Source: Bacillota bacterium (GTDB lineage: Bacteria; Bacillota; Clostridia; Peptostreptococcales; Anaerovoracaceae). From it: a stretch of DNA of 26,009 nt. Numbering within the stretch: position 1 is the stretch's first letter; each line of letters opens with the position of its first letter. This document shows positions 18-23,898 of the stretch, piece after piece. Position numbers and translations under genes: made by a program. The stretch lies in the NCBI GenBank assembly GCA_017543805.1, contig JAFYFK010000204.1, positions 1 through 26,009 of the forward strand. Direction: 5' to 3'. The notes beneath the pieces are model-generated. The model searched no databases. It was given only the letters and a program-made list of their open reading frames with translations, and was not told the origin of the DNA.

Positions 18-1292
18 GTGGGAGATCTGACAGGCTCCATCAACTATTCGATCAGCGTCGCCGCCCTGACCCTGATGGTCATGAGCGTCATCATAACCAA
101 CGTAAGCACCAGCCTCGAGAAAAGCACAAGGCGGTTTTTCTATACGTTTTTCCTTACGATGCTGCTGTACGTGATCTCCAATCTGCTTTCGCAGTTTGCG
201 GAGAACATGGGGACGCCGGCCTTTACGCAGATAGCGATCTTTTCGGAGTCGCTCTTCTCGTCGCTGCTGATGCCGATGCTGACGCTGTTCATACTTGACT
301 GCACCGGAGAAAAATGGCGCGAATCCATGCTGTTTTTCGTGACCTGCGGCATATGGCTGATATATATACTGATACTGCTGATGACGCAGATCACCACATT
401 CATCTATTACATCAGCCCGGACAATGTTTATCACCGCGGCCCGCTGTACCCTGTCCTGCTTGTTCCTCCCGTACTGATAATGGGAGCGAACCTCATCGGG
501 GTCATTCTGAGGCGCAAAATGCTTTCGCAGAAGCAGTTCCTGTCGATCATCACGTTTATAATGCTGCCGATGTTCGCGATGATAATCCAGATGATCTTCT
601 TCGGGCTGTATCTGATAGTTTTCGCTACCGCTGTTTCAGGCATACTCCTCCTGCTGTTTATACTTACGGATCAGATGGAGAACTACGCCAAGCAGCAGAA
701 AGAGATCGCCCAGCAGAGGGCAAGCATCATGGTGCTCCAGATGAGGCCGCACTTCATCTACAATACCATGATGAGCATCTACTATCTTGTGCAGCAGGAT
801 TCCGAGCGCGCCCAGAAAGTCATTCTGGACTTTACAAGCTACCTGAGAAAGAACTTTACCGCCATCGCAAAGGAAGACACGATCCCGTTTACCGAAGAGC
901 TGGAACATACAAGAGCTTACCTTGCTGTCGAACAGGTCCGTTTCGAGGACAAGCTGTTTGTCGAATACGTCACGCCGGAAACGGACTTCAGGCTGCCTCC
1001 GCTCACGCTTCAGCCGATAGTTGAGAACGCGGTAAAGCACGGTATCGACCCGGAGCTTGGATCCCTGTATATCTCGATCTACACGGAAAAAACGCCTTCG
1101 GGCATCAACATAAGCGTCGAGGATTCGGGGCCGGGCTTTGAGGCCTCCGACAACAACGAACCGCATGTCGCCCTGGCGAATATACGGGAAAGATTAAAGA
1201 TAATGTGCGACGGAGAGTTGGAGATCAAATCGCGCAAATCCGGCGGGACCGCTGTCACGATAAAGATCCCGTACCCCAAAGAATCTAAATAA
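18..1292 (+). CDS. LytS/YehU-type sensor histidine kinase with ~7-TM N-terminal domain
   Basis: 424 aa; SD GGAGGTG at 4-10; ~7 hydrophobic segments; H-box LQMRPHFIYNTM, LTLQPIVENAVKHG N-box, EDSGPG G1 box. Confidence 0.9.
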   Translation: MGDLTGSINYSISVAALTLMVMSVIITNVSTSLEKSTRRFFYTFFLTMLLYVISNLLSQFAENMGTPAFTQIAIFSESLFSSLLMPMLTLFILDCTGEKWRESMLFFVTCGIWLIYILILLMTQITTFIYYISPDNVYHRGPLYPVLLVPPVLIMGANLIGVILRRKMLSQKQFLSIITFIMLPMFAMIIQMIFFGLYLIVFATAVSGILLLLFILTDQMENYAKQQKEIAQQRASIMVLQMRPHFIYNTMMSIYYLVQQDSERAQKVILDFTSYLRKNFTAIAKEDTIPFTEELEHTRAYLAVEQVRFEDKLFVEYVTPETDFRLPPLTLQPIVENAVKHGIDPELGSLYISIYTEKTPSGINISVEDSGPGFEASDNNEPHVALANIRERLKIMCDGELEIKSRKSGGTAVTIKIPYPKESK

Positions 1293-2898
1293 CACTGTTT
1301 TCCGCAAGGTGAATGCCGTCCGCGGCGGCTGACATGATGCCGCCCGCGTAGCCCGCGCCCTCACCGCCCGGATAAAGACCTTTAATGACGGAGCCGTCGC
1401 AAAGCACGGCTTCGCCTTTTTCATTTCTGACAAAGCGCAGCGGGGATGAGCTTCTGGATTCTATGGCGGTCATTACAGCCGAGGGATCGGCAAAACCGCG
1501 CAGCTTTCTGTCCAGCATGGGAAGCGCTTCTTCTATGGAGTCCGAGACAAAGTCCGGAAGGCATTTGCGGATATCCGTAAACCTGACGCCTGGGCGGTAT
1601 GTGGGAACAGGTCCTGCTGCAGATGCTTCGCTGTCAGCGGTATGGCCGAGGAAGCTGCCCACAGTCTGGGCGGGCGCTGTATAAGTTCCTCCGCCGAGCT
1701 CAAAGGCCAGCTTTTCGTATTTTTCCTGAAAATCGAGGCCGGCGAGAGGATCTTCCGACCCGAAATCCGAAGTGCGCACGTCGACAAGAAGAGCGCTGTT
1801 GGCGTTTTCGCCGGAGCGGTCCGAATTGCTCATGCCGTTCGTAACGAGCAGTCCTGGATGCGAAGCGGACGCGACGACCTGCCCTCCGGGGCACATGCAG
1901 AAGGTATAAACGCCTCTTCCCGCGCCTGTTTTTACGTTGAGCTTATATTCTGCCGCAGGCAGGCCGAGCGCCCCGTGTTCGGCCGAAAATTGGGCTCTGT
2001 CGACGAGTTTCTGCGTATGCTCCACCCTGACCCCCATGGAAAACGGTTTCTGCTCCGCCAGCAGGCCTTTTTCCGAGAAATATCTGACGGTATCCCTTGC
2101 GCTGTGGCCGGTCCCGAAAACGAGAACGTCGCATTCTATGCGTTCTCCGCTGCCGGTCACGGCGGCTTTAAGCTGACCGTTTTCTGTCTCTATCGCGCTG
2201 AGCATGGTGCCGAAACGGACTTCCCCGCCGAGGGACTCTATCTTTCTCCGTATATTGACGACCACATTCCGCAGAACGTCTGTGCCTATATGGGGCTTCT
2301 GCCTGTACAGTATGGCCGGATCCGCACCGGCCTCGACCAGCGTTTCAAGGATAAAGCGCTGTGCCGGATCCCTTGTCCCGGTAGTAAGCTTGCCGTCGGA
2401 AAACGTGCCTGCCCCGCCCTCGCCGAACTGCACGTTGGCCTCCGGGTCGAGCTCGCCTGTGCTCCAGAAATGTTCGACCGCCTTTACGCGGTCTTCCATG
2501 GCAGGTCCGCGTTCCAGAACTATAGGCTTTAGGCCGTAAAGAGCAAAAGTAAGAGCGGCAAACATGCCGCAGGGACCAAATCCGCAGACCACCGGCCTGT
2601 GTTTGGGAATGTGTTTTGCCTCTGGAAAGTGATAATGCAGGTCGTCAGGAGCTTTCACGGCTTTTACGCCGGCCTTTTTAGCTGCAGAGAGCAGTTTTTC
2701 ATCAGAAATCTTATCCGAAGCAATATCCAGACTGTAGACCCTGTAGATGACAGGCTTTTCCCTCGCGTCAACGGATTCCTTAACTATCCGCATATCAGAA
2801 ATGCTGCCGGAAGCAAGCCTGAGTTTCTTCTCAGCCTTCGCCTTCAGCAGCTCTTCAGATTCGCCTGTCTTCAGTTTTATTTCATGTACGCGGATCAT
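1285..2898 (-). CDS. FAD-dependent oxidoreductase (uncharacterised flavoprotein family)
   Basis: 537 aa; dinucleotide-binding VVCGFGPCGMFAA, conserved QFGEGGAGTFSDGKL, FCMCPGG, C-terminal GEGAGYAGGIMSAA. Confidence 0.85.
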   Translation of the reverse strand: MIRVHEIKLKTGESEELLKAKAEKKLRLASGSISDMRIVKESVDAREKPVIYRVYSLDIASDKISDEKLLSAAKKAGVKAVKAPDDLHYHFPEAKHIPKHRPVVCGFGPCGMFAALTFALYGLKPIVLERGPAMEDRVKAVEHFWSTGELDPEANVQFGEGGAGTFSDGKLTTGTRDPAQRFILETLVEAGADPAILYRQKPHIGTDVLRNVVVNIRRKIESLGGEVRFGTMLSAIETENGQLKAAVTGSGERIECDVLVFGTGHSARDTVRYFSEKGLLAEQKPFSMGVRVEHTQKLVDRAQFSAEHGALGLPAAEYKLNVKTGAGRGVYTFCMCPGGQVVASASHPGLLVTNGMSNSDRSGENANSALLVDVRTSDFGSEDPLAGLDFQEKYEKLAFELGGGTYTAPAQTVGSFLGHTADSEASAAGPVPTYRPGVRFTDIRKCLPDFVSDSIEEALPMLDRKLRGFADPSAVMTAIESRSSSPLRFVRNEKGEAVLCDGSVIKGLYPGGEGAGYAGGIMSAAADGIHLAENSVI

Positions 2899-10721: not shown

Positions 10722-10753
10722 AAGATCCGCTGCGCAATATTACGCAGCGGATC
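10722..10753. terminator. Bidirectional intrinsic terminator; left copy of 32-bp direct repeat
   Basis: AA-GATCCGCTGCG-CAATATTA-CGCAGCGGATC, 11-bp stem, between convergent DUF523 and S8 genes; identical to 23859-23890. Confidence 0.85.
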
Positions 10754-10791: not shown

Positions 10792-12153
10792 TCACGGTCT
10801 TCTCGCTTCGGTCAGCGGCGCATATTTTGCCGCGCCGCAGAAGAACTGCGCCCAGCCGGCAGCTTCATCCGGCGCCTGCAGCGCTGCGCTCTCGCCCGGA
10901 TCGATCGTCAGAGTAAAAGCGCTGACGTTCAGGAAGCGGCCGTCCTCGTCATAGCGCGCAAGATAATATATGCATTCCAGCGTTTCCTCCGTGGCATTGC
11001 GGATACTCTCCGCGGGTCCGGTTTCCGGGGCAAGCAGGTATGGCGGTTTTTCCGCGCGGATGACGCTTGCCGCGATGTCCAGCAGGCCGTAGCCGTATTT
11101 ATCGTCACGCCCTGCATCGCCTTTGTCCACGGCAGTTTCGGCGAGGATCTCCCGTATATCCGCCGGGGTCAGTTCATCGTCGATGCTCAGCAATACTGCC
11201 GCCGCAGCCGCAGCGTACGGCGTTGAGAAGGATGTACCGGTGGAGGTCACATAGCCTCCGAGATTCCCCGCGGTCTTGACGTTCACGCCCGGCGCCGTAA
11301 GGAACACGCTGCTGTTATAGTTGGATCTGTAATACCAGTCTCCGTTCCGGTCCACGCTGCCGACACCGATCACTGTATCGTATGACGCGGGATAATAGAG
11401 AGCGGCAGTTCCGTTGTTGCCTGCCGCCGCGACCACCGTAACGCCTTTCTCCTCGGCGTATCCTATCGCCTCCGCAAGCAGCGTCGAATCGCTGTTTATG
11501 CCGACGCTCAGGTTGATGACATTGCAGCCGTAGTCGTCGACAGCGCCGTATATGGCGCTGCAGACCGTGCTGGTCATTACGGTCTTTCCGTCCGTTATCT
11601 TGAGCGGTACGATCTCCGCCTCCGGCGCCGCGCCTACATATCCGTCGTCTCCGGAACCCGCTATAAGCCCTGCGACGAGTGTGCCGTGGCCGTATTTGTC
11701 CGCGGTGTCGTCTTCGTCCGCGCCTTCCATGTAATTGTGTCCGGCCTGCAGGCAGTGATCAAGGAACGTTCCTGCATTGACTCCGGAGTCGATGACCGCC
11801 ACACGGACTCCCTGCCCCAGATATCCTTTGGCAAAGGCAATATCCGCGCCGATCAGGGCAAGATCCCATTTGTCGGAGGCGTAATACTGCGGCGGATCTT
11901 CATCCAGGATAGTCATGACCGAGTCCTGCTCATACCATTCGAGCTCTCCCGCCGCGTAAAGCCACCGCATCTCCGCCGCGCTGACCACCTCAAAACGGCT
12001 GTTTCCGTCCTTAAGCTTTACGATGTAATCCGGTTCTTCAGCTACTGCGGAGCAGGTCGGCAGAATGATAACAGCAAGCAGGGCTGCGGCCAGAAGCTGT
12101 AACCTGCGCGGAAACTTTTTATTCAGTTTTTCTCCGCTTTTTTTTATTTTCAT
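10792..12153 (-). CDS. Secreted S8 (subtilisin-like) serine protease
   Basis: Signal peptide (..LPTCSAVA), short prodomain, triad VAVIDSG / HGTLVAG / GTSFSTP, oxyanion AAAGN; ~85-aa C-terminal extension. Confidence 0.92.
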   Translation of the reverse strand: MKIKKSGEKLNKKFPRRLQLLAAALLAVIILPTCSAVAEEPDYIVKLKDGNSRFEVVSAAEMRWLYAAGELEWYEQDSVMTILDEDPPQYYASDKWDLALIGADIAFAKGYLGQGVRVAVIDSGVNAGTFLDHCLQAGHNYMEGADEDDTADKYGHGTLVAGLIAGSGDDGYVGAAPEAEIVPLKITDGKTVMTSTVCSAIYGAVDDYGCNVINLSVGINSDSTLLAEAIGYAEEKGVTVVAAAGNNGTAALYYPASYDTVIGVGSVDRNGDWYYRSNYNSSVFLTAPGVNVKTAGNLGGYVTSTGTSFSTPYAAAAAAVLLSIDDELTPADIREILAETAVDKGDAGRDDKYGYGLLDIAASVIRAEKPPYLLAPETGPAESIRNATEETLECIYYLARYDEDGRFLNVSAFTLTIDPGESAALQAPDEAAGWAQFFCGAAKYAPLTEARRP

Positions 12154-12273: not shown

Positions 12274-15200
12274 TTATTTATCCAGTGCGTCGACGAGTCT
12301 GCTGAACATGACAGCTATCTCGGCCCTGGTCGCCCCGTCCTTCGGAGCGAGCCTGCCGTCGGCCTTGCCCTGAACGACCTTGTTCATGGTCATCCAGCAG
12401 AGCGGCTCGTAAGCGTAGCCTGCCACCCGGTCCGCATCCGGATAATCGAGCCGGAAGCTCCACATCCCGCTGAATCCCTTGCCCTTGTACTTGGCGTAGC
12501 GGTACAGGAATGCGGCCAGCTGTTCACGGGTCACCTCTCCGTCCGGGTCGAAGGTGGTTTCGGTAGTGCCCATGACGATGCCGTTTGCGGCAGCCCAGTT
12601 TACAGCGGTCTCGTAGTAGCTGCCGGCCTTGAGGTCTGTAAATCCGTAAGCCTTAGCCTCCGGTCTGTTCTCAAGCCTCCACAGCATCGCGACGACCATC
12701 GCTCTGGTGGTGTGCGCGTTCGGGGCAAATGTCGTCTTCGAGGTACCGGCCATAAGTCCGTTCTCAAGAACGAAATGTAAGCCGTTGTGGTACCAGGCTT
12801 TCGGATCGGCGTCGGTAAAGACGTCTATCGGACAGCTTGCATCCTTCGGGCAGTTTGCGATATCCGCACTCTTATCGTCGTAAGCTATCACGTAGCTTGC
12901 CAGCGAAGACATCTCCCAACTCAGCTTTCCGTTCGTGTAGGTGGCCGGGATCTGAGTCTTCTCTCCGTTCTGGGAGATTCCCCAGACCGTTAAGCCGGAA
13001 GCCTTCTGGCCGTCCTTCAGAGCATAATCGACCGCTACTGTCGCGGTACCTCCTCCGAGGTCCGTAATGCGCTTTCCGCCGCCTGTCATATAGACTTCGT
13101 AGACTTCCTGTACGTCCATATCGCCGAGGGCTTCTGTCTGTTTTACGTTCAGATCCTTCTTTGCTATCGGAGCAACATTGATCTGCAGGTCCATTCCGGC
13201 GGTCTGCCCGGCAGCCGATGCAAGCGCCTTCGGACTTAAGGTCACGGTGCTGTTCGGAAGCTTAACGGTAAGTCCGTCCGCGTCGTCATCAATGGCCTCG
13301 TCGATGGCTTTTACGGTCTCGCCGGGGATGACTACAGAGCTGACGTTCTCAGGCATGCCGCTCAGGTCGACGGTGACGGATCCGGTCTCATTGCCGGCGC
13401 CGGTGATCTCCTTCATCTGGTCTTCGCTCGGTGCGGTAATGGTGGCGGTGCTGCCGTCAACGCTCGCGGTGACGGATGTGCTGCCTTCATCGCCGGACAC
13501 CTCTGCGGTCACAGCAGCGGATCCTGACGAAGATCCGGAGGAAGATGCAGGTTCATCGTCCGAAGTATTGTTTGACGTGCCGCTGACGGTAACGCCGATC
13601 TCTTTGCTTATGCCGGAGGGCATCAGCACCATCGTAAGTCTGGTGCTTCCGCCGTTCACGCCGGTCACGGTGCCGTCCTCATCCACTGTCGCCACGTTCG
13701 GATCAGCAATGCTGTATACCGCTTTCGGTTCCGCCATAAACACAGTGGAGTCATAGCTGACGGTCGTGGAAGCAGTGTTTCCGCTCTTAAGAGACAGGGC
13801 TTTTCCGCCGTTGAAATCGACATTCATCGGGTAGTCCATAGTGAACAGCTTCTGGCTGCTCTGTTTTATTATGCTGCCGTCCTTGTCGATAAGATTTATC
13901 TGGACAGCGTCGTAGCCGCAATATTTGAACAGGCTGGCCGGTATGGTCAGAAGCTGCTCATCCTCAAAGACGGAGCTGTTGATAGTTGAACCGGACGCAG
14001 TCTTGGCCGGGAGTTGAGCAGTAATGTCCTTGCTGTAGAGCAGGCCCGTCTCGATGTTGCCATAGCGGTCGCTGTCCAGATCGTCGTATAGACCGACCAG
14101 ATGGATCTCGACGGTGGTGCCCTCTTCGGCAGGTGCGTTGCCCCTGTTGGCTACTCTGTAGTCAATGCTGAACTGATCGCCGTCCTGCACGAGCTCGTTG
14201 ATCGTAATGTTAAAGTCAGGAGCTATGCTGAAGGTATCGGAATAAGACTTTGTATCAGCATAGTAGCCGCCCTTCGCATCCTTCTCTCTGATGACCGCCT
14301 GGATGCTGTAGCCGTCCGGGCCGTCCGCAGGCACTGTCCAGTTGAAGCAGATCTTCTTAGCGGTGTTGACCGGGATGGTCTCGTCGCTGGTATATGTATC
14401 ACCGATCTTGCGCTTCTGCACGCCGTCCTTGTACTCGTAGAATTCGACCACGCAGCCTTCGGCGTTGATCAGACCGACATTTTCGACAGCGGCGGTGACC
14501 TGAACAGTCTCGTTCGCGACGGGTCTGGTGTCACTGAACTCGAACTGGGTCGCCTCCAGAGAACCTACCTTTTCGCAGCGGGTAACGCTCAGGGTCACGG
14601 GGGAATTGTAGGTCAGGGACGCAGCATAATAGTTACCTTCCCTGTCCTGAGTCAGGCCGATCTTGCCCTGTTCGACAAGGCGTACGGCCTCTGCCTCGCT
14701 CTGTGCCATCAGTTTGGAATAACGGTTGTGGACGATCATAAGATCGCCGTTTTTGTCCAGCGCCAGCGCAAGACCGTCGTTGAACTCATTGCTTCTTGTA
14801 AGCCTGTATGGCTTGGACCAGCGGGCGGTACCGGGATCCATCGCGCCGTTCGGATCCTGCTGGATCATGGCGGAAGCGTAGATCTCCTGCGCTATGCTGG
14901 AACCGGTCTCGTCTGCTCCGCTGTCTGCGGCCACGCTGTCCGTCCAGACAACGTAGAGGTTGTCTGCCTCGTCGGTCATTACCTCATACTCGGTTATCTC
15001 GATGGCGTCAGCGGTCAGCAGAGACCCGAAGTCCACGCCCATAACTCTGGGCTCATACTGTCTTCCTGTCTTTGCGTCAGTGGCGAATGTGCCGTCGGGC
15101 TGCACTGCCCAGGTAACATCGGCTTCGGTGTAATTTGCCGCATCCTCGCCCTTGTCAGCGGTCGGAACCTTTGCCTTGAACATTTCGGAAACGTTCAGAT

Positions 15201-18200
15201 ATTTAAGTGTCTGACCGTCCTGACGCCAGAAGAGGAAGGTATTTCCGCCGTTCCTTATGAGCTTCGGCGTGCCTACCTCCACCTGTCTGGTCCTCTCAGT
15301 CATAACGAAGCTGCGTGTCGCCGGGTCGTAATCCTCGAGCTCTTCGGTGACACTGCCCGCAACGCGGACAGGAACGTAGGTGGTGTGTGTATTGAAATCG
15401 TAAGTCTGGACATAGAGAGCCCTGTCATCCGCGGTGTTCAGATCGAAGTCCGTATCCACCGTGTAGGCGTATACCGCAAGACCGTTGTAGCCGGAAGCTA
15501 CGGTAAGGTCAGTGATCGGCGGGTCGGTATTCTTACCGTTCTTATCGATCAGCACGGACGGCAGGAAACGCTGTCCGCCCCACTCCACCAGACTCTGCCG
15601 CTGATCGGCAACGCTCTCCGAAGTCTCGTTATCGAAGTAGTACGTGCGTGCCCAGCCCTTGCCCGGAGTCTGACCGAAGGTGTTCACCGCATCCTCCTGA
15701 TTGTTGTATAGCATGTATACGATGGCACTGTAGGTCTTGTCGGGATCGGGGCTTACAGCTGCCAGATCGAGGAGCTTCTCGCCTTCCGAGTCGTATTTGG
15801 AGTCATTCTGATCCGTCTTGGTGTAGTAGACGATATAGTCGCCGGTCTCGCCGTCATAGACCGCCTGTGGGAAGTCGTCGTAGTAATCGTCGTCCGTAAG
15901 CTGGACAATAGGTCCTAAGCCCGGTCTGGACTTATTGAACTCAACAGTAAAGATATCGAATATCTTCATTGCGGCTGCCGGATCCTTCTCCAGAGCCTGC
16001 TGAACCAGTTCGGGATCATCCGAGCCGATCTTCTGCGCAAATTCGTCCTTCAGGGCATTGTACTTGGCGTTGGAAGCGGATGCCCAGGAGATTATGACCT
16101 TGTTGCCGGCGTCGACCAGATTTGGCCTGCTGTCGGCGGTCATGTCGTTCTGTACGGTCTGAGGCTCAGTCCATGTATCGTATGTTGCGTCGTAGACTGT
16201 CCACTTGAGCGTTGCGGCCTGCATGGCGTCTCTTTCGGGACTGTCGTCCAGGAAGACCATAAGGAACTTATTATCGCCAATGTTGATTATCTTGCTGGAA
16301 GGCTGAGCAAAAGCATTCTCAACGATATCCTTTGTTACGACCGTACCGTATGCCGCCATCAGCTGGCCGTCATTGGCCACCCACTTTGAATCGACATGCG
16401 GGTTGGTGTGGTAAGCGAGTCCTGTAGGCTCATCGTCCTGCAGCACCGCGTTCATGACGGTACCGACAAGTCCGCCCTGCTTATTCATTTCAATGGCGTT
16501 GGCAGTGGTCCAGGTGATGATGTCGTGGTCGTAAGCCCATTTCTTGAGGTCGTAGGTCTTATCCTTGATGGCTTCGACATCGCCCTGATACTTATCCACG
16601 AAATCGCCAAGCTCCCGGCACTTCTGAAGGGCAGTTGCCCTGTCGGCCGCAGTACCGTGTTCGTCTTCTATGCCTTTTTCGACATAGCTGATGCATTTAT
16701 TGGCCCTGCGGACCTCCTGGAAGTAATACATGAAGCCGTCCGCAAGAGGCAGAGGCCAGGATGCCGAGTATACGTCTATTGATGTTATCACAAGGTCTAT
16801 AGTCCCTGTGAAGCCTGCTTCGGTCACGTAGCCCCAGCCTGTGTCAAACAGATCGGGGAACCAGTCTGTGACATTGTTGCTGTAGCCGGACTCAAATACC
16901 AGTTCTACGGTGATCCTCGCGCCGAGTATCTTGTACCAGCCTACGCCGAAGGTTCCGGATACATAGATGCGGCCCTTGAACTCGAAGTTGAAGCTGTAGT
17001 CCTGCGCGTGGACCTGGCTCTTGTTCTTGAAATCGTCAAGCTTCTCGTACTCGGCCAGCGTCTTGTTCGGATCGGCTGAAGCGCCGAGGAAGAAGGTGAC
17101 GTTCATGCCTGCCTCAACGTTGACATAAGCGGGGATGGGTCCCAACATGAAAGGCCATGTATAGCCCACGCCGCCTGTAAATCCGATGAAGCCGCCCGCG
17201 CCCATGAAGACCGCGTCATGGCTCTTCCCCACTCCGCCGTCCTTAGTCATGGAAAGGTCGATATAACCGAAATCGATATAGATGCCTACATAGACCGCGA
17301 TCTTAAAGTAGGGCCCGCCGAAATTGCTTAAATTCCTGGCGCCATAAGCGGCGGAATGGCCTATTCGGGAAACGTTATAGGCCTGATCCAGGTCAGAGGC
17401 GAGGCCGTAAGCATTCTGGATCGCGTTATAAGTCTGATTTTCCGCATAGGCTGCTTTGAATGAACCGACAGAATGGTAAGGATTCCTCTGACTGCTGTAT
17501 CCGCTGCCGCCGCCGGTGCTGACGACAACGCCCAGCATGAAGCGCACTCCGCCGTAGAATGTCTCTTCGAACTTGACCAGTATGCTGAAGACGAAGCTCT
17601 GCGTATAGCCGCCGCCCTCGCCCCCGGCATTGCCTCCGGCAATTTCGTCGTCGCCGAAGTCCAGGCCGTCTTCATCGTCATCTCCGCCCATGGATTCAAG
17701 ATCGGCCATGAGGGAATCCATCTCAGCGCTTGCCGTGGCGCTGGAGACTACCCTGGATACGACGGTGACCGCTGCGGTTATAGCCCCGATGTAGGGGAAG
17801 GAACCGAAGCTTGCGCGCTTGTCGTCCGCAAGCAGGTTTCCGTCCTCGTCCGTCTTGGGCTCGACGCCCAGAAGGCTTGCAACGTCTTCAATGTCGTAGT
17901 CAAAGACCTGAGTCTTGAAATCCGGATCTGATATTACTGCATAACCTGTAGAGACCGGATCATAAACCATCTGCTTTTCGCCGGTAAAGGCGGTGGTCAC
18001 GGTCTGCTTGTCCGTTGTGAGCCTGCACATCAGCACGTCGCCGTAAGTCCAGGATTCGGGATTCTTCGGAGTGAACTGCGCAATATCAAGAGTAAAGGTC
18101 CCTCCGCCGTTTCCGTCAGGCACCCAGCCCCATTTTGCGGGAGAATCCTTACTAGGCGTGACGTTGGAAGAGAAGTACCCGTGGATCTCTCCGGTATTCT

Positions 18201-21200
18201 GATCCTGGAAGTAGACTGTTACGTCCTTTATGTTCTCAGTAAGGATCTGGCCGTTAAGAACATACTGGCCGCCCACGACCTTGATGTCAGCGAGCAGTCT
18301 GTTGCCGTTCATGGCAAGAGCGTCGACCACACCTGCGATCTTTCCGCCCTGCTGTACAAAGGCGCTCTCGAAATGAGCTCCGGTGGACGAGAAGTTCTCG
18401 ACCGTCACGAGGCCGGCCTTGGCCTTTACAGCCTTGACGCTTTCGCTGTCGACAGTCACAGCGGAATAAGTCCTGGAGGTCGCGGCGGGGACCATGGCCT
18501 CCTTAATGCTGCTGACGCCGTTATAGTTGATCAGGAAGCGTACAAGAGTGCTGGCGCACACGCGCACCGCAGGCATTTCAAATTCGCCCTCTTCGTTCGT
18601 CCAGGCGCCTGTCTTACCGTAGGACACATAGGCGTTCTCAGCCGCGATAATGTCGTTTGCGCTGCGTTCCGTGTTAAGGTTGAATGTAGAGCTCGCCACT
18701 GTGCCGCTTAAGGTCATATAGGTGAGCTTCTGGCCCGTGGGCACAGTCAGTTTGATGACATTGTCCGCAGGCTGGGGATTCGTAAGATGATAGAACGTTT
18801 CGCCGGAATAGGTCTTATTGTCGGACGTTGTCCAGCGCGCGATGCTGCTGCCGTCCTTTGCATAGGCCTCAAGCGCGTAGACGTCGTTGATGAGGACCTT
18901 CCTGGCGACGACGATGTAGTAAATGCCGTTATCGTTTGAAATGCTGACATGATTGCCGTCGGCGAAGATGCCCCTGGTCGTGTCGAGCTTTTCATACTCA
19001 GCGTCAGTGACCGTGACCACCAGATTGTTCGCATTGCTGGTGAAGACCGGCCTGAGCAGATAATGAGGTCTGTCGACGTCCTTGCCGCCGCTGTTCTTTC
19101 CGCTGAGTTCAAAGGGGATCGAACCGTTGACGTAGCCTACCGTGTTCCAGTTGACCAGGTCGCCCGTGCTGCCCTGCGTGCGCAGTTCGTAATACACGCC
19201 TACAGGCTCCATCTCATTCTCTGTTCCGTAAGCGGTGAGGATGGTCGACAGGGTCAGATTGTCACCGAGGTGGTAAGCGACACCGGTGGGAAGATTCAGA
19301 TAGCCGCTGGCATCACTCTGGATCTCCAGTTCGACATCGATATAATCGAACACCGGGCGGAAGACAAGGTCGCCCTTGTAACTCTTTCCGTTGAGATTGC
19401 CGTTTTCGGACCATTTGATCGCTCCCATTTTGTAGAGCTTGTTGATCGTTTCCGCGTCCAGATTTACAACGACGCTCGAAGTCTTGCCGTCGATAGAGGC
19501 AAAGCTCTTCCATTCTCCCGTAGCCGGGATCTGCACATCAAGGCCGACAAGCTGCAGCGGGTTATTGGTCTTGGCTGTAACAGAGAAGCTGTCTTCCGTC
19601 CAATAGCTGGCGCGGGAATTGTCTCTGCTGTCCAGGTATACCGCTTCGTAGTCTGCAAGCACGGTATCGTCGTCAACGCCGATCAGGGGCTTTACCTCCG
19701 GCGCTTCGAGCTTCACGTCAAACTGACGGAGAATATAATGGATATCCTCAACGTAAAGTTCAGGCCAGCTGTCCTGCCATCTGAAGCCCTCCGTCGCGTC
19801 TGTGTTTTCACAGTAGACACCGATGCTGGTGATCTTGGCTGCTTCCGGATCGATGGCGTTCCAGGCGCAGTAGAGCCAGTGGCCATAATACCAGCCGTCG
19901 TCATCGAAGCGGTCGTCCATCGCACTTTCGAAACGGTCCGGGTAATGACGGCCGATCCGCCAGCTGACGTCGCAGTTGTTGGCCTGACCGTAATAGTCCA
20001 GGTAGATGCCGTCGTAAGCGACTCCTTTGAGCATGGATGTCCACATATAGTAAGCAGCCCACTCTTCCACTCGGTTGTGAGTGCTGAGATAGACCTGGGT
20101 GTCGCTCTTGAAGCAGCTTCCGCTGCCGCCGGAAAGTGTGCCGGATTTGACCTGTATGGGGTCCATCGACACGGGTCTGCCGGTCTGAGCGATAGTCTTG
20201 TTGTCGAACATCAGCTCACCGTCGCCGGAAATGTTCTTCGCCGCCGGAATTATGACGTGAGTAGTCGAAAGTGTTATATTTTCATCAGAAAGAGGTGTTA
20301 TGGTCACATAAAAGTCTTTCTGCTCCGTTCCGTGGTATACAGGGATCTGTATTGAACGGGTGGTAAGACCCATGGAGAAATACAGCTTGGCGCCGATGCC
20401 GCTGTATTCATCGCCCTGCTTTGCGCTGCCGTCCCAGGAAGAGACGCGCACTCCCTTAAGCGCATTGATCCTGCCGCTGCGGTTGACGGTAATGACCGCC
20501 ACACCGTCCTCGGCATATACGGTGCTCTGAGCCATGCTTATGGTGACAGGCGAAGGTTCGTCCTCATCCCGGATGATGACAGAAACGGGGTTGACGTCTT
20601 CTCCTATCTCAAAGCCCTCGCCGGGCTTCTTGAGCATCAGCATTATCATGGCGTCGCCTTCGGCGGCGTCGGAATGCATCGGTGTAACGACAAGGAATTT
20701 GACCTTCTCGCCTGCGGAGAAATACAGGCGGTATTCCTTGCCCGGATAGCTCTCCTGTGTGGCGTCGGCCATCTCCTGATCAAACTCGTCCTCAGTCATG
20801 GTGTTGGTTCCGAGGCCGGTAAGGAGATCTCCGCCTTCAAGCTTCTGACGGTCGGATACGGTTCCTGTATATCTGTTGCGCGCGTCGCGCAGCGCTCCCG
20901 CCGAAGAAGCAGGCTTATCCGTATTGCGTTCCGTGAACCACCCAGTCTCTTCGACATCGCCGGGAATGACAGCCTCTTCTGCAGGCATTGCTTCTTCGGG
21001 CTCCCCGGGTCCTTCTTCGAGTACCGGTTCTTCAGGCTCTTCTTCGAGTGCCGGCTCTTCAGGCTCTTCAGCTTCAGGTTCATTCTGAACTGCCGGATCG
21101 CCGTTTTCGTCGAGAGGCGTTACGCTTACGGTACCTACCGTGTTGCCTTCGCCGTCCACTATCTCAGCACCGCCGTACTCGTTTATCGCATCGCCCAGAT

Positions 21201-21636
21201 CGTTTTCGTCACCGACCTCGACTTCCTCTATGCTTTCCGCATTCTGAATAAGGTCGACGATGGCATCGCCGCCGAAGACGGTCTCCGGCTCGACATCCTC
21301 TTTATATATCTCCACGGTATAGTTCTCATCGTGGCGGGCGCTCAGGTCTATGAGCTTAAGCGTTACCTCCGTCTCCACATCCGTATCGCCTGTGCGCTGG
21401 ATGGGGATGTAGAGCTTATCCGTGCTGTTTTCGCTGATAGTATAGCTGGATTCCGGTATGAAGAACCAGTTCCCGCCGTCCCGGAACTTATCCGGTACGG
21501 CCAGCGTTATCTCTTCCGTCGGGTCGATCTTTCTGACGATCTCTTCCGCAGCCCAGACTATAGTATATTGACACAACTGGGTCAGCATGAAAACTGCCAG
21601 AAGAACGGCGATGGATCTTCTGCAATGTCGCTTCAT
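12274..21636 (-). CDS. 3120-aa SLH-anchored surface protein (Calx-beta x2, beta-rich core, propeller-like region, CARDB-like x2, Big_2, 3 SLH)
   Basis: SD AGGAGG; signal peptide ending VWA; Calx-beta-like FFIPESSYTISE..RTG and VITVNRSG..GSAKQGDEY; CARDB-like VTAAVENVG and YRVANRGN; Big_2 PNVATVDEDGTVTGV..G; three SLH repeats (TRAMVV, TREQLA, TRAEIA) at ~12277-12825. Confidence 0.85.
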   Translation of the reverse strand: MKRHCRRSIAVLLAVFMLTQLCQYTIVWAAEEIVRKIDPTEEITLAVPDKFRDGGNWFFIPESSYTISENSTDKLYIPIQRTGDTDVETEVTLKLIDLSARHDENYTVEIYKEDVEPETVFGGDAIVDLIQNAESIEEVEVGDENDLGDAINEYGGAEIVDGEGNTVGTVSVTPLDENGDPAVQNEPEAEEPEEPALEEEPEEPVLEEGPGEPEEAMPAEEAVIPGDVEETGWFTERNTDKPASSAGALRDARNRYTGTVSDRQKLEGGDLLTGLGTNTMTEDEFDQEMADATQESYPGKEYRLYFSAGEKVKFLVVTPMHSDAAEGDAMIMLMLKKPGEGFEIGEDVNPVSVIIRDEDEPSPVTISMAQSTVYAEDGVAVITVNRSGRINALKGVRVSSWDGSAKQGDEYSGIGAKLYFSMGLTTRSIQIPVYHGTEQKDFYVTITPLSDENITLSTTHVIIPAAKNISGDGELMFDNKTIAQTGRPVSMDPIQVKSGTLSGGSGSCFKSDTQVYLSTHNRVEEWAAYYMWTSMLKGVAYDGIYLDYYGQANNCDVSWRIGRHYPDRFESAMDDRFDDDGWYYGHWLYCAWNAIDPEAAKITSIGVYCENTDATEGFRWQDSWPELYVEDIHYILRQFDVKLEAPEVKPLIGVDDDTVLADYEAVYLDSRDNSRASYWTEDSFSVTAKTNNPLQLVGLDVQIPATGEWKSFASIDGKTSSVVVNLDAETINKLYKMGAIKWSENGNLNGKSYKGDLVFRPVFDYIDVELEIQSDASGYLNLPTGVAYHLGDNLTLSTILTAYGTENEMEPVGVYYELRTQGSTGDLVNWNTVGYVNGSIPFELSGKNSGGKDVDRPHYLLRPVFTSNANNLVVTVTDAEYEKLDTTRGIFADGNHVSISNDNGIYYIVVARKVLINDVYALEAYAKDGSSIARWTTSDNKTYSGETFYHLTNPQPADNVIKLTVPTGQKLTYMTLSGTVASSTFNLNTERSANDIIAAENAYVSYGKTGAWTNEEGEFEMPAVRVCASTLVRFLINYNGVSSIKEAMVPAATSRTYSAVTVDSESVKAVKAKAGLVTVENFSSTGAHFESAFVQQGGKIAGVVDALAMNGNRLLADIKVVGGQYVLNGQILTENIKDVTVYFQDQNTGEIHGYFSSNVTPSKDSPAKWGWVPDGNGGGTFTLDIAQFTPKNPESWTYGDVLMCRLTTDKQTVTTAFTGEKQMVYDPVSTGYAVISDPDFKTQVFDYDIEDVASLLGVEPKTDEDGNLLADDKRASFGSFPYIGAITAAVTVVSRVVSSATASAEMDSLMADLESMGGDDDEDGLDFGDDEIAGGNAGGEGGGYTQSFVFSILVKFEETFYGGVRFMLGVVVSTGGGSGYSSQRNPYHSVGSFKAAYAENQTYNAIQNAYGLASDLDQAYNVSRIGHSAAYGARNLSNFGGPYFKIAVYVGIYIDFGYIDLSMTKDGGVGKSHDAVFMGAGGFIGFTGGVGYTWPFMLGPIPAYVNVEAGMNVTFFLGASADPNKTLAEYEKLDDFKNKSQVHAQDYSFNFEFKGRIYVSGTFGVGWYKILGARITVELVFESGYSNNVTDWFPDLFDTGWGYVTEAGFTGTIDLVITSIDVYSASWPLPLADGFMYYFQEVRRANKCISYVEKGIEDEHGTAADRATALQKCRELGDFVDKYQGDVEAIKDKTYDLKKWAYDHDIITWTTANAIEMNKQGGLVGTVMNAVLQDDEPTGLAYHTNPHVDSKWVANDGQLMAAYGTVVTKDIVENAFAQPSSKIINIGDNKFLMVFLDDSPERDAMQAATLKWTVYDATYDTWTEPQTVQNDMTADSRPNLVDAGNKVIISWASASNAKYNALKDEFAQKIGSDDPELVQQALEKDPAAAMKIFDIFTVEFNKSRPGLGPIVQLTDDDYYDDFPQAVYDGETGDYIVYYTKTDQNDSKYDSEGEKLLDLAAVSPDPDKTYSAIVYMLYNNQEDAVNTFGQTPGKGWARTYYFDNETSESVADQRQSLVEWGGQRFLPSVLIDKNGKNTDPPITDLTVASGYNGLAVYAYTVDTDFDLNTADDRALYVQTYDFNTHTTYVPVRVAGSVTEELEDYDPATRSFVMTERTRQVEVGTPKLIRNGGNTFLFWRQDGQTLKYLNVSEMFKAKVPTADKGEDAANYTEADVTWAVQPDGTFATDAKTGRQYEPRVMGVDFGSLLTADAIEITEYEVMTDEADNLYVVWTDSVAADSGADETGSSIAQEIYASAMIQQDPNGAMDPGTARWSKPYRLTRSNEFNDGLALALDKNGDLMIVHNRYSKLMAQSEAEAVRLVEQGKIGLTQDREGNYYAASLTYNSPVTLSVTRCEKVGSLEATQFEFSDTRPVANETVQVTAAVENVGLINAEGCVVEFYEYKDGVQKRKIGDTYTSDETIPVNTAKKICFNWTVPADGPDGYSIQAVIREKDAKGGYYADTKSYSDTFSIAPDFNITINELVQDGDQFSIDYRVANRGNAPAEEGTTVEIHLVGLYDDLDSDRYGNIETGLLYSKDITAQLPAKTASGSTINSSVFEDEQLLTIPASLFKYCGYDAVQINLIDKDGSIIKQSSQKLFTMDYPMNVDFNGGKALSLKSGNTASTTVSYDSTVFMAEPKAVYSIADPNVATVDEDGTVTGVNGGSTRLTMVLMPSGISKEIGVTVSGTSNNTSDDEPASSSGSSSGSAAVTAEVSGDEGSTSVTASVDGSTATITAPSEDQMKEITGAGNETGSVTVDLSGMPENVSSVVIPGETVKAIDEAIDDDADGLTVKLPNSTVTLSPKALASAAGQTAGMDLQINVAPIAKKDLNVKQTEALGDMDVQEVYEVYMTGGGKRITDLGGGTATVAVDYALKDGQKASGLTVWGISQNGEKTQIPATYTNGKLSWEMSSLASYVIAYDDKSADIANCPKDASCPIDVFTDADPKAWYHNGLHFVLENGLMAGTSKTTFAPNAHTTRAMVVAMLWRLENRPEAKAYGFTDLKAGSYYETAVNWAAANGIVMGTTETTFDPDGEVTREQLAAFLYRYAKYKGKGFSGMWSFRLDYPDADRVAGYAYEPLCWMTMNKVVQGKADGRLAPKDGATRAEIAVMFSRLVDALDK
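21014..21067. repeat. 2 x 27-bp tandem repeat encoding EEPEEP(A/V)LE
   Basis: tcttcgagtaccggttcttcaggctct / tcttcgagtgccggctcttcaggctct, 25 of 27 identical. Confidence 0.85.
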
Positions 21637-21669
21637 GAGTGTATTCCTCCTGCTTATATTACAGTCTGT

Positions 21670-21855
21670 TTAGACCTTGTCTCTTAATTCGGCAGTAATA
21701 TCACTGACGGGAACGCGGGGAGCGTTGGCTAAGCCGCGTCCGCCGGCGACATCGTCCATTACCTTGTCTTCCAGTTCCTTCAAATCGGTTTCCGGCATGA
21801 CATCCGGCGTTCCGGCTGCCTTTGCTGCTTTGTGATTCTTTTTTCTGAATAACAT
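21670..21855 (-). CDS. 61-aa peptide precursor with double-glycine-type leader
   Basis: SD AAAGGAG 8 nt before ATG 21855; leader ends ELEDKVMDDVAGG (L-12, M-7, V-4, GG); predicted core RGLANAPRVPVSDITAELRDKV. Confidence 0.75.
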   Translation of the reverse strand: MLFRKKNHKAAKAAGTPDVMPETDLKELEDKVMDDVAGGRGLANAPRVPVSDITAELRDKV

Positions 21856-21909
21856 GACTGTATCTCCTTTATGTGGTAAATAAATTTTCATTAGTATTTT
21901 AGATATTCA

Positions 21910-21984
21910 ATTATATTATATGTTTATAGATTATTACGAATAACAGGATTATATGTAAGTGGATGTTTCAAAATGAATCATTTT
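21910..21984. promoter_or_regulatory. AT-rich divergent control region with palindrome and direct repeats
   Basis: AAAATGA-A-TCATTTT (21970-21984); ATTATATGT at 21915 and 21948; minus-strand TATAAT boxes at 21910-15, 21915-20, 21948-53. Confidence 0.45.
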
Positions 21985-22041: not shown

Positions 22042-22061
22042 GCTGAAAGGTGCGAGATACC

Positions 22062-22652
22062 ATGACCAAGTCCTTCGGCGAGATACTTCGCCGTCTGAGA
22101 ATCGAAAAAGGCCTGTCCCAGCAGCAGCTTGCGGACAGGCTTTACGTACAGCGTCCGAGCCTCACTAACTGGGAGACAGGCCGCCGTATACCTGACGTGG
22201 TCATGATCTCCAGAATTGCAGAAGCTCTGGGCGTGGAAACTTCCGCCCTTCTGGATGCAGCAAAGGAGCCCGGAGAGGCTCCGAACGTTATGCTGGTGGA
22301 CGACGAAGCCATCATACTCGACGGCGGACTGCCTGTTTTGCGGGAAGCTCTGCCGAAAGCGAATATTGTGGGATTTACAAAGCCGCTTGAGGCGGTCGAA
22401 TACATCAGGAATCATCCCGTGGCACTGGCATTTATCGACATCGAACTGGGGCGTGCAAGCGGTCTTGACCTGTGCAGGGAGCTGCTCAGCATAAAGCCCC
22501 GTACTAACGTGGTCTTCCTCACCGCTTTCCGGGAATATTCCTTTGATGCCTGGGGCACAGGCGCCTGCGGTTTTCTGCTGAAACCTCTGGAAGCGGATGC
22601 CGTGCGCGCACAGCTTTCCTGCCTGCGTTTTCCTGTTGAGGGCCTGCTGTAA
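22062..22652 (+). CDS. Response regulator with N-terminal XRE HTH and C-terminal receiver domain
   Basis: XRE HTH LRRLRIEKGLSQQQLA..WETGRRIPD; REC motifs VMLVDDE, AFIDIEL, FLTA, LLKP; SD AAAGGTG 9 nt before ATG 22062 (alternative GTG 22050); TAATG overlap with kinase. Confidence 0.9.
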   Translation: MTKSFGEILRRLRIEKGLSQQQLADRLYVQRPSLTNWETGRRIPDVVMISRIAEALGVETSALLDAAKEPGEAPNVMLVDDEAIILDGGLPVLREALPKANIVGFTKPLEAVEYIRNHPVALAFIDIELGRASGLDLCRELLSIKPRTNVVFLTAFREYSFDAWGTGACGFLLKPLEADAVRAQLSCLRFPVEGLL

Positions 22653-23857
22653 TGGAATTGTATTACTCATCGATCATGGAGGCTGCCGCGATCCCGTTCG
22701 GAATTTCCGGACTGGTGGTTATGTATTTTGCCCGCGGCATCGACAGATGGCCAAGGCGTCTCTGCATCGCCATAATGTGCTCCTCGGTCGCAGCGGCAGT
22801 CTTAAACCTGCTTGGAAACGCCGCTTTTTATTATCACGCGTCCCTTCCTCTATGCTGGGCGGTGATTATCGCAGAAAACCTTATAGTCCCGATCCCGTCA
22901 CTGCTGATAACCGCATATCTTTTGTACTGCTCCGGAGAAGACTGGCGCAGCAGCGCATTGATGCATATTCTGGGGGCACTTACATGCATCCTGATCCTCG
23001 CTGAGATCGTGGGATACTTCACCGGCGAGCACTCCATCACCCCTGAATACAGAGTCAGCTTCGGCAGATTGTCCGTTTACTATTGGGTCCTGATGGCGGC
23101 TATGACGGTCATTTTCCTCATGGCCATCATCAGAAGATGGAAAAAGCTGACCACGCCGCAGCGAATCATTTTTCTTGTAAGCTTCATCTCTCCGTCCTAC
23201 ATACAATGTGTGCTTCTTACTCTTATCATCCTTGCAGATCTTATACACAGCTATACGAAGCAGATGGAAGAAACGGCGCGTCAGAAAACGCAGATCGCAG
23301 TACTGAAGATGCGTCCGCATTTTATCCATAACACACTGATGAGCATCTACTACCTCTGCGCAAAAGATCCCGAGAAGGCGCAGAAAGTCATAAAGGATTT
23401 CTCCCGGTACCTGCAGAACAATTTCACCGCGATCGCAGAGGAATCGACTGTCCCCTTCTCCAAGGAACTGGAGCACACGCAGGCGTATCTTGCGGTGGAA
23501 AAGGCGCGTTATGAAGGCCGGCTGTTCGTGGAATTTGACACCCCCAATACATTTTTCCGCATCCCGCCGCTTACGCTGCAGCCCATCGTGGAAAACGCCA
23601 TAAAGCACGGACTGGACCCCGACCTCGAACCGCTGTATGTTTCCGTGGTTACTGAGGATGCCGACGACGGCGTCCGGATAATCGTGGAAGACACAGGACC
23701 CGGTTATGCCCCGTCGGATGACAGACCGCACTTTGCCCTCGACAATATCCGCGAACGGCTGGAGACCATGTGCGGCGGCACTCTGCAGATCGAAAAGCGC
23801 GACGCCGGCGGCACAAAGGTGACTGTTTTTGTTCCCTGGAAAGACGTGAAAAAATAA
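22652..23857 (+). CDS. LytS/YehU-type multi-TM sensor histidine kinase, paralogue of 18..1292
   Basis: 401 aa; LKMRPHFIHNTL H-box, LQPIVENAIKHG, EDTGPG; hydrophobic N-terminal half with no large extracellular loop. Confidence 0.9.
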   Translation: MELYYSSIMEAAAIPFGISGLVVMYFARGIDRWPRRLCIAIMCSSVAAAVLNLLGNAAFYYHASLPLCWAVIIAENLIVPIPSLLITAYLLYCSGEDWRSSALMHILGALTCILILAEIVGYFTGEHSITPEYRVSFGRLSVYYWVLMAAMTVIFLMAIIRRWKKLTTPQRIIFLVSFISPSYIQCVLLTLIILADLIHSYTKQMEETARQKTQIAVLKMRPHFIHNTLMSIYYLCAKDPEKAQKVIKDFSRYLQNNFTAIAEESTVPFSKELEHTQAYLAVEKARYEGRLFVEFDTPNTFFRIPPLTLQPIVENAIKHGLDPDLEPLYVSVVTEDADDGVRIIVEDTGPGYAPSDDRPHFALDNIRERLETMCGGTLQIEKRDAGGTKVTVFVPWKDVKK

Positions 23858-23858
23858 A

Positions 23859-23898
23859 AAGATCCGCTGCGCAATATTACGCAGCGGATCTCTTTTTT
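23859..23898. terminator. Bidirectional intrinsic terminator; right copy of 32-bp direct repeat
   Basis: Same 11-bp stem hairpin as 10724-10753; followed by TCTTTTTT on + and preceded by an A-run. Confidence 0.88.

Follow-up and report, generated by a model that had tools for sequence, protein, structure and literature searches.

A conserved double-glycine leader peptide paired with a giant SLH-anchored surface protein in gut Clostridia and probably exported in trans

Peptides with a double-glycine leader are usually interpreted as bacteriocins or as quorum signals. In the quorum systems ComCDE and BlpRHC, the peptide gene is co-transcribed with an HPK10/AgrC-type kinase and a LytTR regulator, while in the enterococcal cytolysin and lichenicidin systems the leader is removed in two steps, by a PCAT (CylB or LicT) and by a secreted subtilisin (CylA or LicP). 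Giant surface proteins without an assigned function are common in gut Firmicutes. The closest described relatives of the system reported here are the peptides exported by AMS/PCAT transporters (ComC/ComAB, BlpC/BlpAB, LahA/LahT and CtA/PCAT1), which lack a Sec region, have leaders that end in GG or GA and are hydrophobic at positions -4, -7 and -12, and are handled by C39-ABC exporters carrying a catalytic Cys and His. For LahT and ComA, the determinants of cleavage are V-4, L-7 and L-12 together with GG, GA or GS at -2/-1, and Glu-8 is dispensable, as mutation at -8 did not abolish cleavage by LahT150 (PMC6363468). A second relevant precedent is the NHLP/Nif11 group, in which scattered substrates are served by one export cassette defined by TIGR03794, TIGR03796 and TIGR03797 (Haft et al. 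2010, PMC2887384).

We analyzed a 26,009-nucleotide contig of a Bacillota bacterium (JAFYFK010000204.1, assembly GCA_017543805.1; hereafter the window), which carries a gene for a 61-aa double-glycine leader peptide, P0001 (21670-21855, minus strand, stop codon included). The stop codon of this gene is separated by 33 nt, with no terminator between, from the start of a second minus-strand gene that has its own AGGAGG and encodes a giant SLH-anchored protein of 3120 aa (12274-21636). Domain searches assigned a Sec signal, Calx-beta, CARDB and Big_2 domains and three SLH repeats to the giant protein, while its unassigned middle had no PDB relative by sequence and matched unnamed Atlas clusters only. 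The same strand encodes a secreted S8 subtilase (10792-12153) with a signal peptide and no C-terminal anchor; the enzyme is mycosin-like, scoring 203.7 bits on the type VII mycosin model TIGR03921 against a cut-off of 278.75, and has the N-terminal signal segment only. Divergent from the peptide gene, on the plus strand, lie a response regulator with an XRE-type HTH domain (HTH_3) followed by a receiver domain (Response_reg; 22050-22652) and a histidine kinase with about six transmembrane segments, PF06580 and HATPase_c (22652-23857). These five genes occupy a 13.1-kb block bounded by two exact copies of a 32-bp hairpin direct repeat (10722-10753 and 23859-23890). At the contig edge (18-1292) lies another PF06580 kinase, which shares 40% identity with that of the block along its whole length; any partner regulator of this kinase would lie beyond the contig.

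The initial annotation had proposed that a strong Shine-Dalgarno sequence defines a frame of 61 aa and not the alternative call of 73 aa. A Shine-Dalgarno sequence, AAGGAG, is indeed located 8 nt before the shorter frame's ATG (21864-21869, minus strand), and it is the same in L024, a metagenomic contig with 96% nucleotide identity over window positions 21609-21983; the ATG of the longer frame, at 21891, has no such sequence. Comparison with L024 further revealed a 1-nt deletion between the two ATGs, which puts the 73-aa ATG out of frame and leaves the 61-aa frame unbroken. Because this indel breaks the longer frame in a contig that is 96% identical, we regard the 73-aa start as ruled out and the 61-aa start as correct. 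Two close homologues carry an in-frame insertion of 12 nt (4 aa), and distant orthologues share the start M-(L/F)-x-(R/K)-K-K. Upstream of the gene we noted a promoter-like site (21930-21959, minus strand; CTTACA, an 18-nt spacer and AATAAT), identified by consensus matches only and flanked by two copies of ATTATATGT (21915-21923 and 21948-21956), which form a 9-bp direct repeat. The sequencing runs found to contain the window were ruminant gut samples, and four ruminant-gut RNA libraries held contigs matching positions 21519-21953 without mismatch, one of which (21527-21793, a perfect match) spans the junction between the peptide gene and the giant gene. Given a depth of about 2x, similar coverage of the regulator and kinase genes and possible DNA carry-over, these contigs are consistent with expression of the peptide gene, short of proof.

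The leader of P0001 comprises residues 1-39 (21739-21855, minus strand) and runs from a basic N-terminus, MLFRKK, through an acidic helix to the terminal VAGG. Residues 27-39, ELEDKVMDDVAGG, place Gly at -1 and -2, Ala at -3, Val at -4, Met at -7 and Leu at -12, with a further Leu at -15, in agreement with the L(-12)/hydrophobic(-7)/V(-4)/GG pattern that had been read in the translation. An AlphaFold model, which we used for the leader helix only, predicted with low confidence (pLDDT 60) a helix at residues 22-38. No hydrophobic segment or Sec-type signal was found anywhere in the 61 residues. In these respects the precursor resembles the AMS/PCAT substrates, but it differs from them in its long leader of 39 aa, its basic N-terminus and the presence of Val, not the Glu of the ComA consensus, at position -8. 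For LahT150, Glu-8 is not strictly required (PMC6363468).

A loose regular expression for such leaders matched 236 of the 47,453 small ORFs of the genome (0.5%), and because of this rate the leader motif carries little weight by itself. Scored with a matrix derived from 13 further double-glycine leaders of this genome, P0001 excluded, the leader reached 22.3 bits, within the range of true leaders (6-28 bits in a leave-one-out test) and above the maximum of 3.4 bits reached by 4,556 GG sites in long ORF translations, a test that is partly circular as both sets had been pre-selected with the same expression. In our reading of the sequences, the deciding evidence for the double-glycine site is its conservation in orthologues. 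The cleavage junction V-x-G-[G/A] is present in all of the approximately 25 relatives, with the first Gly invariant and the second position Gly or Ala (VxGG in the window, G041 and L057, and VxGA in the majority), and hydrophobic residues are always present at -4, -7 and -12. The homologues thus all keep the site, be it G-G or G-A, with its hydrophobic register unchanged; lack of such conservation would have counted against the initial annotation.

The relatives themselves were reached in several ways. Single-sequence searches, one of them against 1.8 billion representatives, returned three near-identical proteins only; the single-sequence matches in 200 family genomes proved to be chance, one of them lying inside a large ORF resembling a helicase/methylase. 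Distant relatives were found through orthologues of the giant protein, whose flanks were read for small ORFs. A search of family genomes for the 3120-aa protein yielded two orthologues, in G262 and G041, and just upstream of the G262 giant gene was a 57-aa ORF with its own GGAGG that aligns to P0001 along the motif M-F-x-K-K-K, the junction V-N-G-A-G and a PRVP...I...LR core. A profile then retrieved 16 protein clusters, and further members came from genome and metagenome scans, giving a family of about 25 relatives of 52-65 aa. We discarded as false positives an ORF antisense to a Chitinophaga SusD-like gene, L061 and L062 (a protein with FG-GAP repeats and an ORF outside the family), and a weak match in G211 to the acidic tail of RpoC. 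Relatives were found in rumen and gut Oscillospiraceae (Faecousia and a goat abomasum MAG), and at order level the peptide was present in 2 of 401 genomes. Searches of Pfam and NCBIfam at permissive E-values gave no match for P0001 or for other family members. P0001 belongs to a small, undescribed peptide family.

Family members share a layout of a variable, charged, helical leader followed by a strongly conserved, Cys-free core with the consensus (G)NPF(E/D)xIPRVPTQPIDDELR(D/E)x(A/G). The predicted mature core of P0001, the 22-residue RGLANAPRVPVSDITAELRDKV (21673-21738, minus strand), aligns to this consensus, and its residues P46, R47, P49, I53, L57 and R58 are invariant or nearly so in the core alignment. 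When distant members are compared, non-synonymous differences amount to 0.09-0.26 in the core, against 0.5-0.9 for synonymous ones, and in the leader to about 0.45-0.5 against 0.6-0.8. The core of P0001 is the most divergent of the family: it has lost the NPF motif and reads PRVPVSDITAELR, and its non-synonymous difference from the others is about 0.4. Because non-synonymous differences in the core are far below synonymous ones, a sign that its amino acids are kept by selection, we conclude from these comparisons that P0001 is a real, translated gene under purifying selection. The P0001 core is hydrophilic, contains no Cys and no hydrophobic segment and carries a net charge of +1, as opposed to about -3 in the family consensus. 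These properties agree with the earlier description of the 22-aa core as Cys-free and unlike typical class II bacteriocins or lanthipeptides. Readings of the peptide as a lasso peptide, sactipeptide or lanthipeptide were rejected, there being no Cys, no suitable spacing for a macrolactam acceptor and no enzymes.

Family searches of the window agreed with the initial annotation that it holds no gene for a C39 transporter, immunity protein or RiPP enzyme; its sole ABC ATPase is FtsE-like and its sole radical-SAM protein is of the MiaB/RimO type. Outside the window, an exporter is encoded in cis at four loci of the family (L034, L043, L045 and L048), where an accessory protein, a C39-ABC transporter and a second ABC protein are encoded next to the peptide gene. 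The order in L034 is peptide, accessory protein, C39-ABC, second ABC, small ORF, ECF sigma factor, S8 protease, second peptide and giant protein; L045 has the same order, preceded by a kinase and a SpoIIE-type phosphatase, and in L043 and L048 the order is C39-ABC, second ABC, S8, peptide and giant protein. The L034 C39-ABC passes TIGR03796, and its second ABC, with 685 bits, falls just below the TIGR03797 cut-off of 709; the pumps of L043, L045 and L048 were typed through 62-72% identity to the pumps of L034 and of contig C28 of this genome, which were typed with the curated models. The accessory protein is a stub of 78-141 aa that matches the N-terminal part only of the HlyD-like TIGR03794.

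The genome that contains the window, whose assembly is 79% complete in 306 contigs, encodes two such pairs of C39-ABC and second ABC, one on contig C28 and the other on C138, and a small accessory gene accompanies each pair. C39 transporters of NHLP type thus exist elsewhere in the genome, as the initial annotation required of its proposal that the transporter is encoded at a distance. The C28 pair lies above both curated cut-offs, its C39-ABC reaching 932 bits where TIGR03796 asks for 853, and the C138 pair is typed by homology only (57-59% identity to NHLP-type pumps) and by the same gene order. Both C39-ABC proteins (C28:2997-5180 and C138:8004-10505) retain the catalytic Cys and His within QxxxxxCG and NHFVV motifs. 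The cluster-linked pumps are 70-72% identical to one another, 62-64% to that of C28 and 57-59% to that of C138; on these identities the C28 pump, the nearer relative of the linked pumps, appears the better candidate, and neither is a clear orthologue. A third pump could sit in the missing fifth of the genome. In G262 and G041, an NHLP-type pump is likewise unlinked from the peptide. We consider it probable, from the conserved site, the exporters in cis and the two intact pumps, that the P0001 precursor is cut after Gly39 and exported in trans by the C28 or C138 pump. This arrangement shares with the NHLP/Nif11 systems the type of exporter pair, substrates far from the pump and many paralogues per genome (PMC2887384), but differs from them in that the P0001 leader is not homologous to the nitrile hydratase alpha subunit or Nif11 (TIGR03793 and TIGR03798), the accessory protein is a stub and the peptide loci contain no cyclodehydratase, LanM or radical-SAM enzyme.

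P0001 is not the only peptide of its kind in the genome. A filter for a Shine-Dalgarno sequence and an acidic leader gave 17 candidates, and at least 15 clear double-glycine peptides are present besides P0001, many without Cys and some Cys-rich and bacteriocin-like. Their leaders, of the type ..L.D..LD.V(A/S)GG, closely resemble that of P0001. At three further loci, a double-glycine peptide is encoded directly upstream of an SLH protein (C28:47-343, C155:2772-3194 and C200:2662-2799); since only about ten contigs of the genome carry SLH-domain matches, this pairing is far above chance. The order on C28 is peptide, a 790-aa SLH protein, accessory protein, C39-ABC and second ABC, and after the exporter two more double-glycine peptides lie around a STAS-domain gene. 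On C138 (3928-10609; L040), the exporter pair is located beside a 464-aa protein that looks radical-SAM/SPASM-like by eye and a long-leader precursor that ends in AVAGG and has a Cys-containing core; this locus has the appearance of a RiPP-like cluster of its own.

Wherever the neighbor of a family peptide gene could be read, it encoded, on the strand of the peptide gene, an orthologue of the giant protein; this holds for this genome (G000), L024, G262/L030, L034, L043, L044/L056, L045, L049, L052, L055, L057, G041 and L058. As a rule the peptide gene precedes the giant gene by 30-90 nt; in G041 and L058 it follows immediately downstream. Among 301 family genomes sampled, the N-terminus of the giant protein and the peptide profile matched the same three genomes. 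The type of core also tracks the type of giant protein, in that RIK(I/T)H-type cores are found downstream of the more divergent giants. An S8 gene was present in six of about nine loci with long flanks, and the L034 S8 is 49% identical over its full length to that of the window. No modifying enzyme was found in any peptide locus examined.

Conservation of a C39 exporter and a secreted S8 protease beside a double-glycine peptide is also a feature of CylB/CylA and LicT/LicP, and by analogy with these a second, extracellular trimming of the peptide by the S8 protease is conceivable. Unlike those systems, the present loci have no lanthipeptide synthetase, and the core is neither Cys-containing nor rich in Ser/Thr. 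From the AMS/PCAT systems, with which it shares the C39-ABC exporters, in cis at related loci, the family further differs in a core that is neither a known pheromone nor a known bacteriocin and in a gene that is fixed beside an SLH protein of about 3000 aa.

The regulatory genes were far less constant. Full-length alignment of the window kinase with the one next to the G262 orthologue gave 30% identity, and with the L045 kinase it shares 41%, but no such kinase and regulator accompany the orthologues of G041, L034, L043, L044/L056 and L058, and L024 lacks them as well. The type of regulator differs by locus, being XRE-REC, REC-Trans_reg_C or an ECF sigma factor with a small upstream ORF. From these comparisons, the giant SLH protein emerges as the constant partner of the peptide, with kinase and regulator as variable neighbors. 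In L024, a coiled-coil gene of more than 466 aa stands in place of the regulator and kinase, and its first seven codons (MFQNESF; L024:1380-1400) are kept in the window at 21963-21983; the two-component genes therefore seem to have arrived by replacement or insertion, with the breakpoint close to 21983. No homologue of the coiled-coil gene was found in this genome (the 79% complete assembly).

Several small observations concern these variable regions. In G262/L030, the kinase, regulator, a 96-aa double-glycine peptide, the family peptide and the giant gene lie on one strand. The additional peptide of this lineage (94-96 aa, with the leader LSLDQLESVSGG and a His-rich cargo; L042:13737-14027 in G262 and L030:8906-9190) sits between the regulator and the family peptide and is likely a second exporter substrate in the same operon. 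Parts of partner-switching systems were also seen, a membrane SpoIIE-type PP2C phosphatase (L045:1228-2847) and an HATPase_c_2 kinase (L030:3767-4651), which hints at layered regulation of these loci. An ORF of 60-68 aa overlaps the start of the ECF sigma gene (L034:8151-8345 and L045:7831-8037); its end is formed by a leader-like L..EL..(L/V)SAAG and a short tail (DPF or DPY in the clusters). This genome holds an unlinked copy of the ORF and the sigma gene (contig C108, about 1120-1300, minus strand). The ORF matched no Pfam or NCBIfam family, and its product could be an exported anti-sigma-like protein.

We tentatively propose, as the best explanation of the whole and one to which we give somewhat less than an even chance, that the product acts as an extracellular partner of the module of giant protein and S8 protease and not as a population pheromone. 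The 61-aa precursor would release an unmodified, hydrophilic 22-mer, which may serve as a dedicated extracellular companion (a ligand, subunit or processing partner) of the giant SLH protein and the secreted S8 protease; through co-transcription with the giant gene, the peptide would be made whenever the giant protein is made. The basis of this partner model is linkage only, because no shared motif, tag or docking site was found between the peptide cores and the giant proteins, S8 proteases or kinases, and adjacency would equally fit co-regulation. We know of no precedent for such a partnership between a peptide and a giant surface protein, and no description of the pairing was found in the literature searched. 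The earlier reading of P0001 as an unmodified signaling peptide exported by a distant transporter is upheld for export in trans, by the conserved site, the exporters in cis and the pumps on C28 and C138, and for the lack of modification, as no cluster has a modifying enzyme. Its signaling part is not borne out as stated, since the two-component genes are missing beside most orthologues, regulator types vary and the core is conserved across genera.

A pheromone role is nevertheless a possibility, somewhat weaker than the partner model. Here the exported 22-mer would be sensed by the adjacent six-TM kinase, and the XRE-REC regulator would activate the divergent promoter, producing positive feedback on the peptide-giant operon in a three-component logic like that of ComC/BlpC, assembled from different parts. 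To our knowledge, all well-studied unmodified, non-bactericidal double-glycine peptides are pheromones, which gives this reading its precedent, and in ComCDE, BlpRHC and PlnABCD such a peptide, a multi-TM kinase and a regulator occur together with an exporter that may be elsewhere. In the window, the membrane-embedded kinase adjoins the peptide, and homologous kinases occur in the G262/L030 lineage and at the L045 edge; the operon that the peptide would induce begins with the peptide's own gene; and the 9-bp direct repeat surrounds the promoter-like site. However, the kinase and regulator are lacking at the loci given above, including L024, which is 96% identical up to 21983, and regulators are interchangeable between loci. 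The kinase is of the PF06580 type, not HPK10/AgrC, and the regulator combines XRE-HTH and REC and is not LytTR; the peptide is divergent from the two-component genes and co-transcribed instead with a giant surface protein. The core, moreover, is nearly invariant across genera, unlike those of pherotype-diversified pheromones. Because only the giant protein is constant and the core type follows the giant type, we rank the partner model first and the pheromone reading second, and the two are not mutually exclusive.

Other functions appear considerably less probable. That P0001 is not exported at all, acting as a small cytoplasmic protein or as an upstream ORF through whose translation the giant gene's expression is tuned, with an incidental GG motif, would fit a gene that precedes the giant gene by 33 nt on a shared transcript and a window without an exporter. 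We regard this as improbable, given the family-wide conservation of the G-G/G-A site and the -4/-7/-12 register, the four clusters with the gene beside a C39 exporter pair and the purifying selection on the amino-acid sequence of the core; an upstream regulatory ORF is impossible in G041 and L058, where the peptide gene follows the giant gene. A class II (unmodified) bacteriocin that kills competitors once exported seems very improbable. The double-glycine leader, the PCAT-type exporter and the many such peptides of the genome, some of them Cys-rich and bacteriocin-like, speak for it, but the Pro-containing core is hydrophilic and has neither an amphipathic nor a cationic character (net charge +1 in P0001 and about -3 for the consensus), none of the loci has a gene for a small membrane immunity protein next to the peptide, and both the strong core conservation and the fixed pairing with a giant surface protein are untypical of bacteriocins.

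Returning to the partner model, we may extend it, more speculatively, to a two-part surface system in which a PCAT-exported, unmodified peptide of about 22 residues is the obligatory extracellular partner of an SLH giant of about 3000 aa, acting as its ligand, subunit or protease-dependent activator or inhibitor, with the S8 protease as a third component. The same pump may in addition export the ECF-linked leader-like protein, coupling secretion to transcription like FlgM. We regard this extended scheme, which would put the export route of bacteriocins and pheromones to a new use in gut Clostridia, as possible but doubtful.

In summary, the export mechanism is a known one, and what is new is the P0001 family and its genomic pairing: a hydrophilic peptide, conserved and unmodified, is linked gene by gene to a giant cell-wall-anchored protein and a secreted protease in uncultured rumen and gut Oscillospiraceae. 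Should the peptide work on the surface protein or together with it, C39 exporters would gain a new role, and the peptide would offer an experimental handle on giant surface proteins. If it is instead a pheromone, the locus would represent quorum sensing through a non-canonical kinase and regulator, in control of an adhesin-like surface protein.
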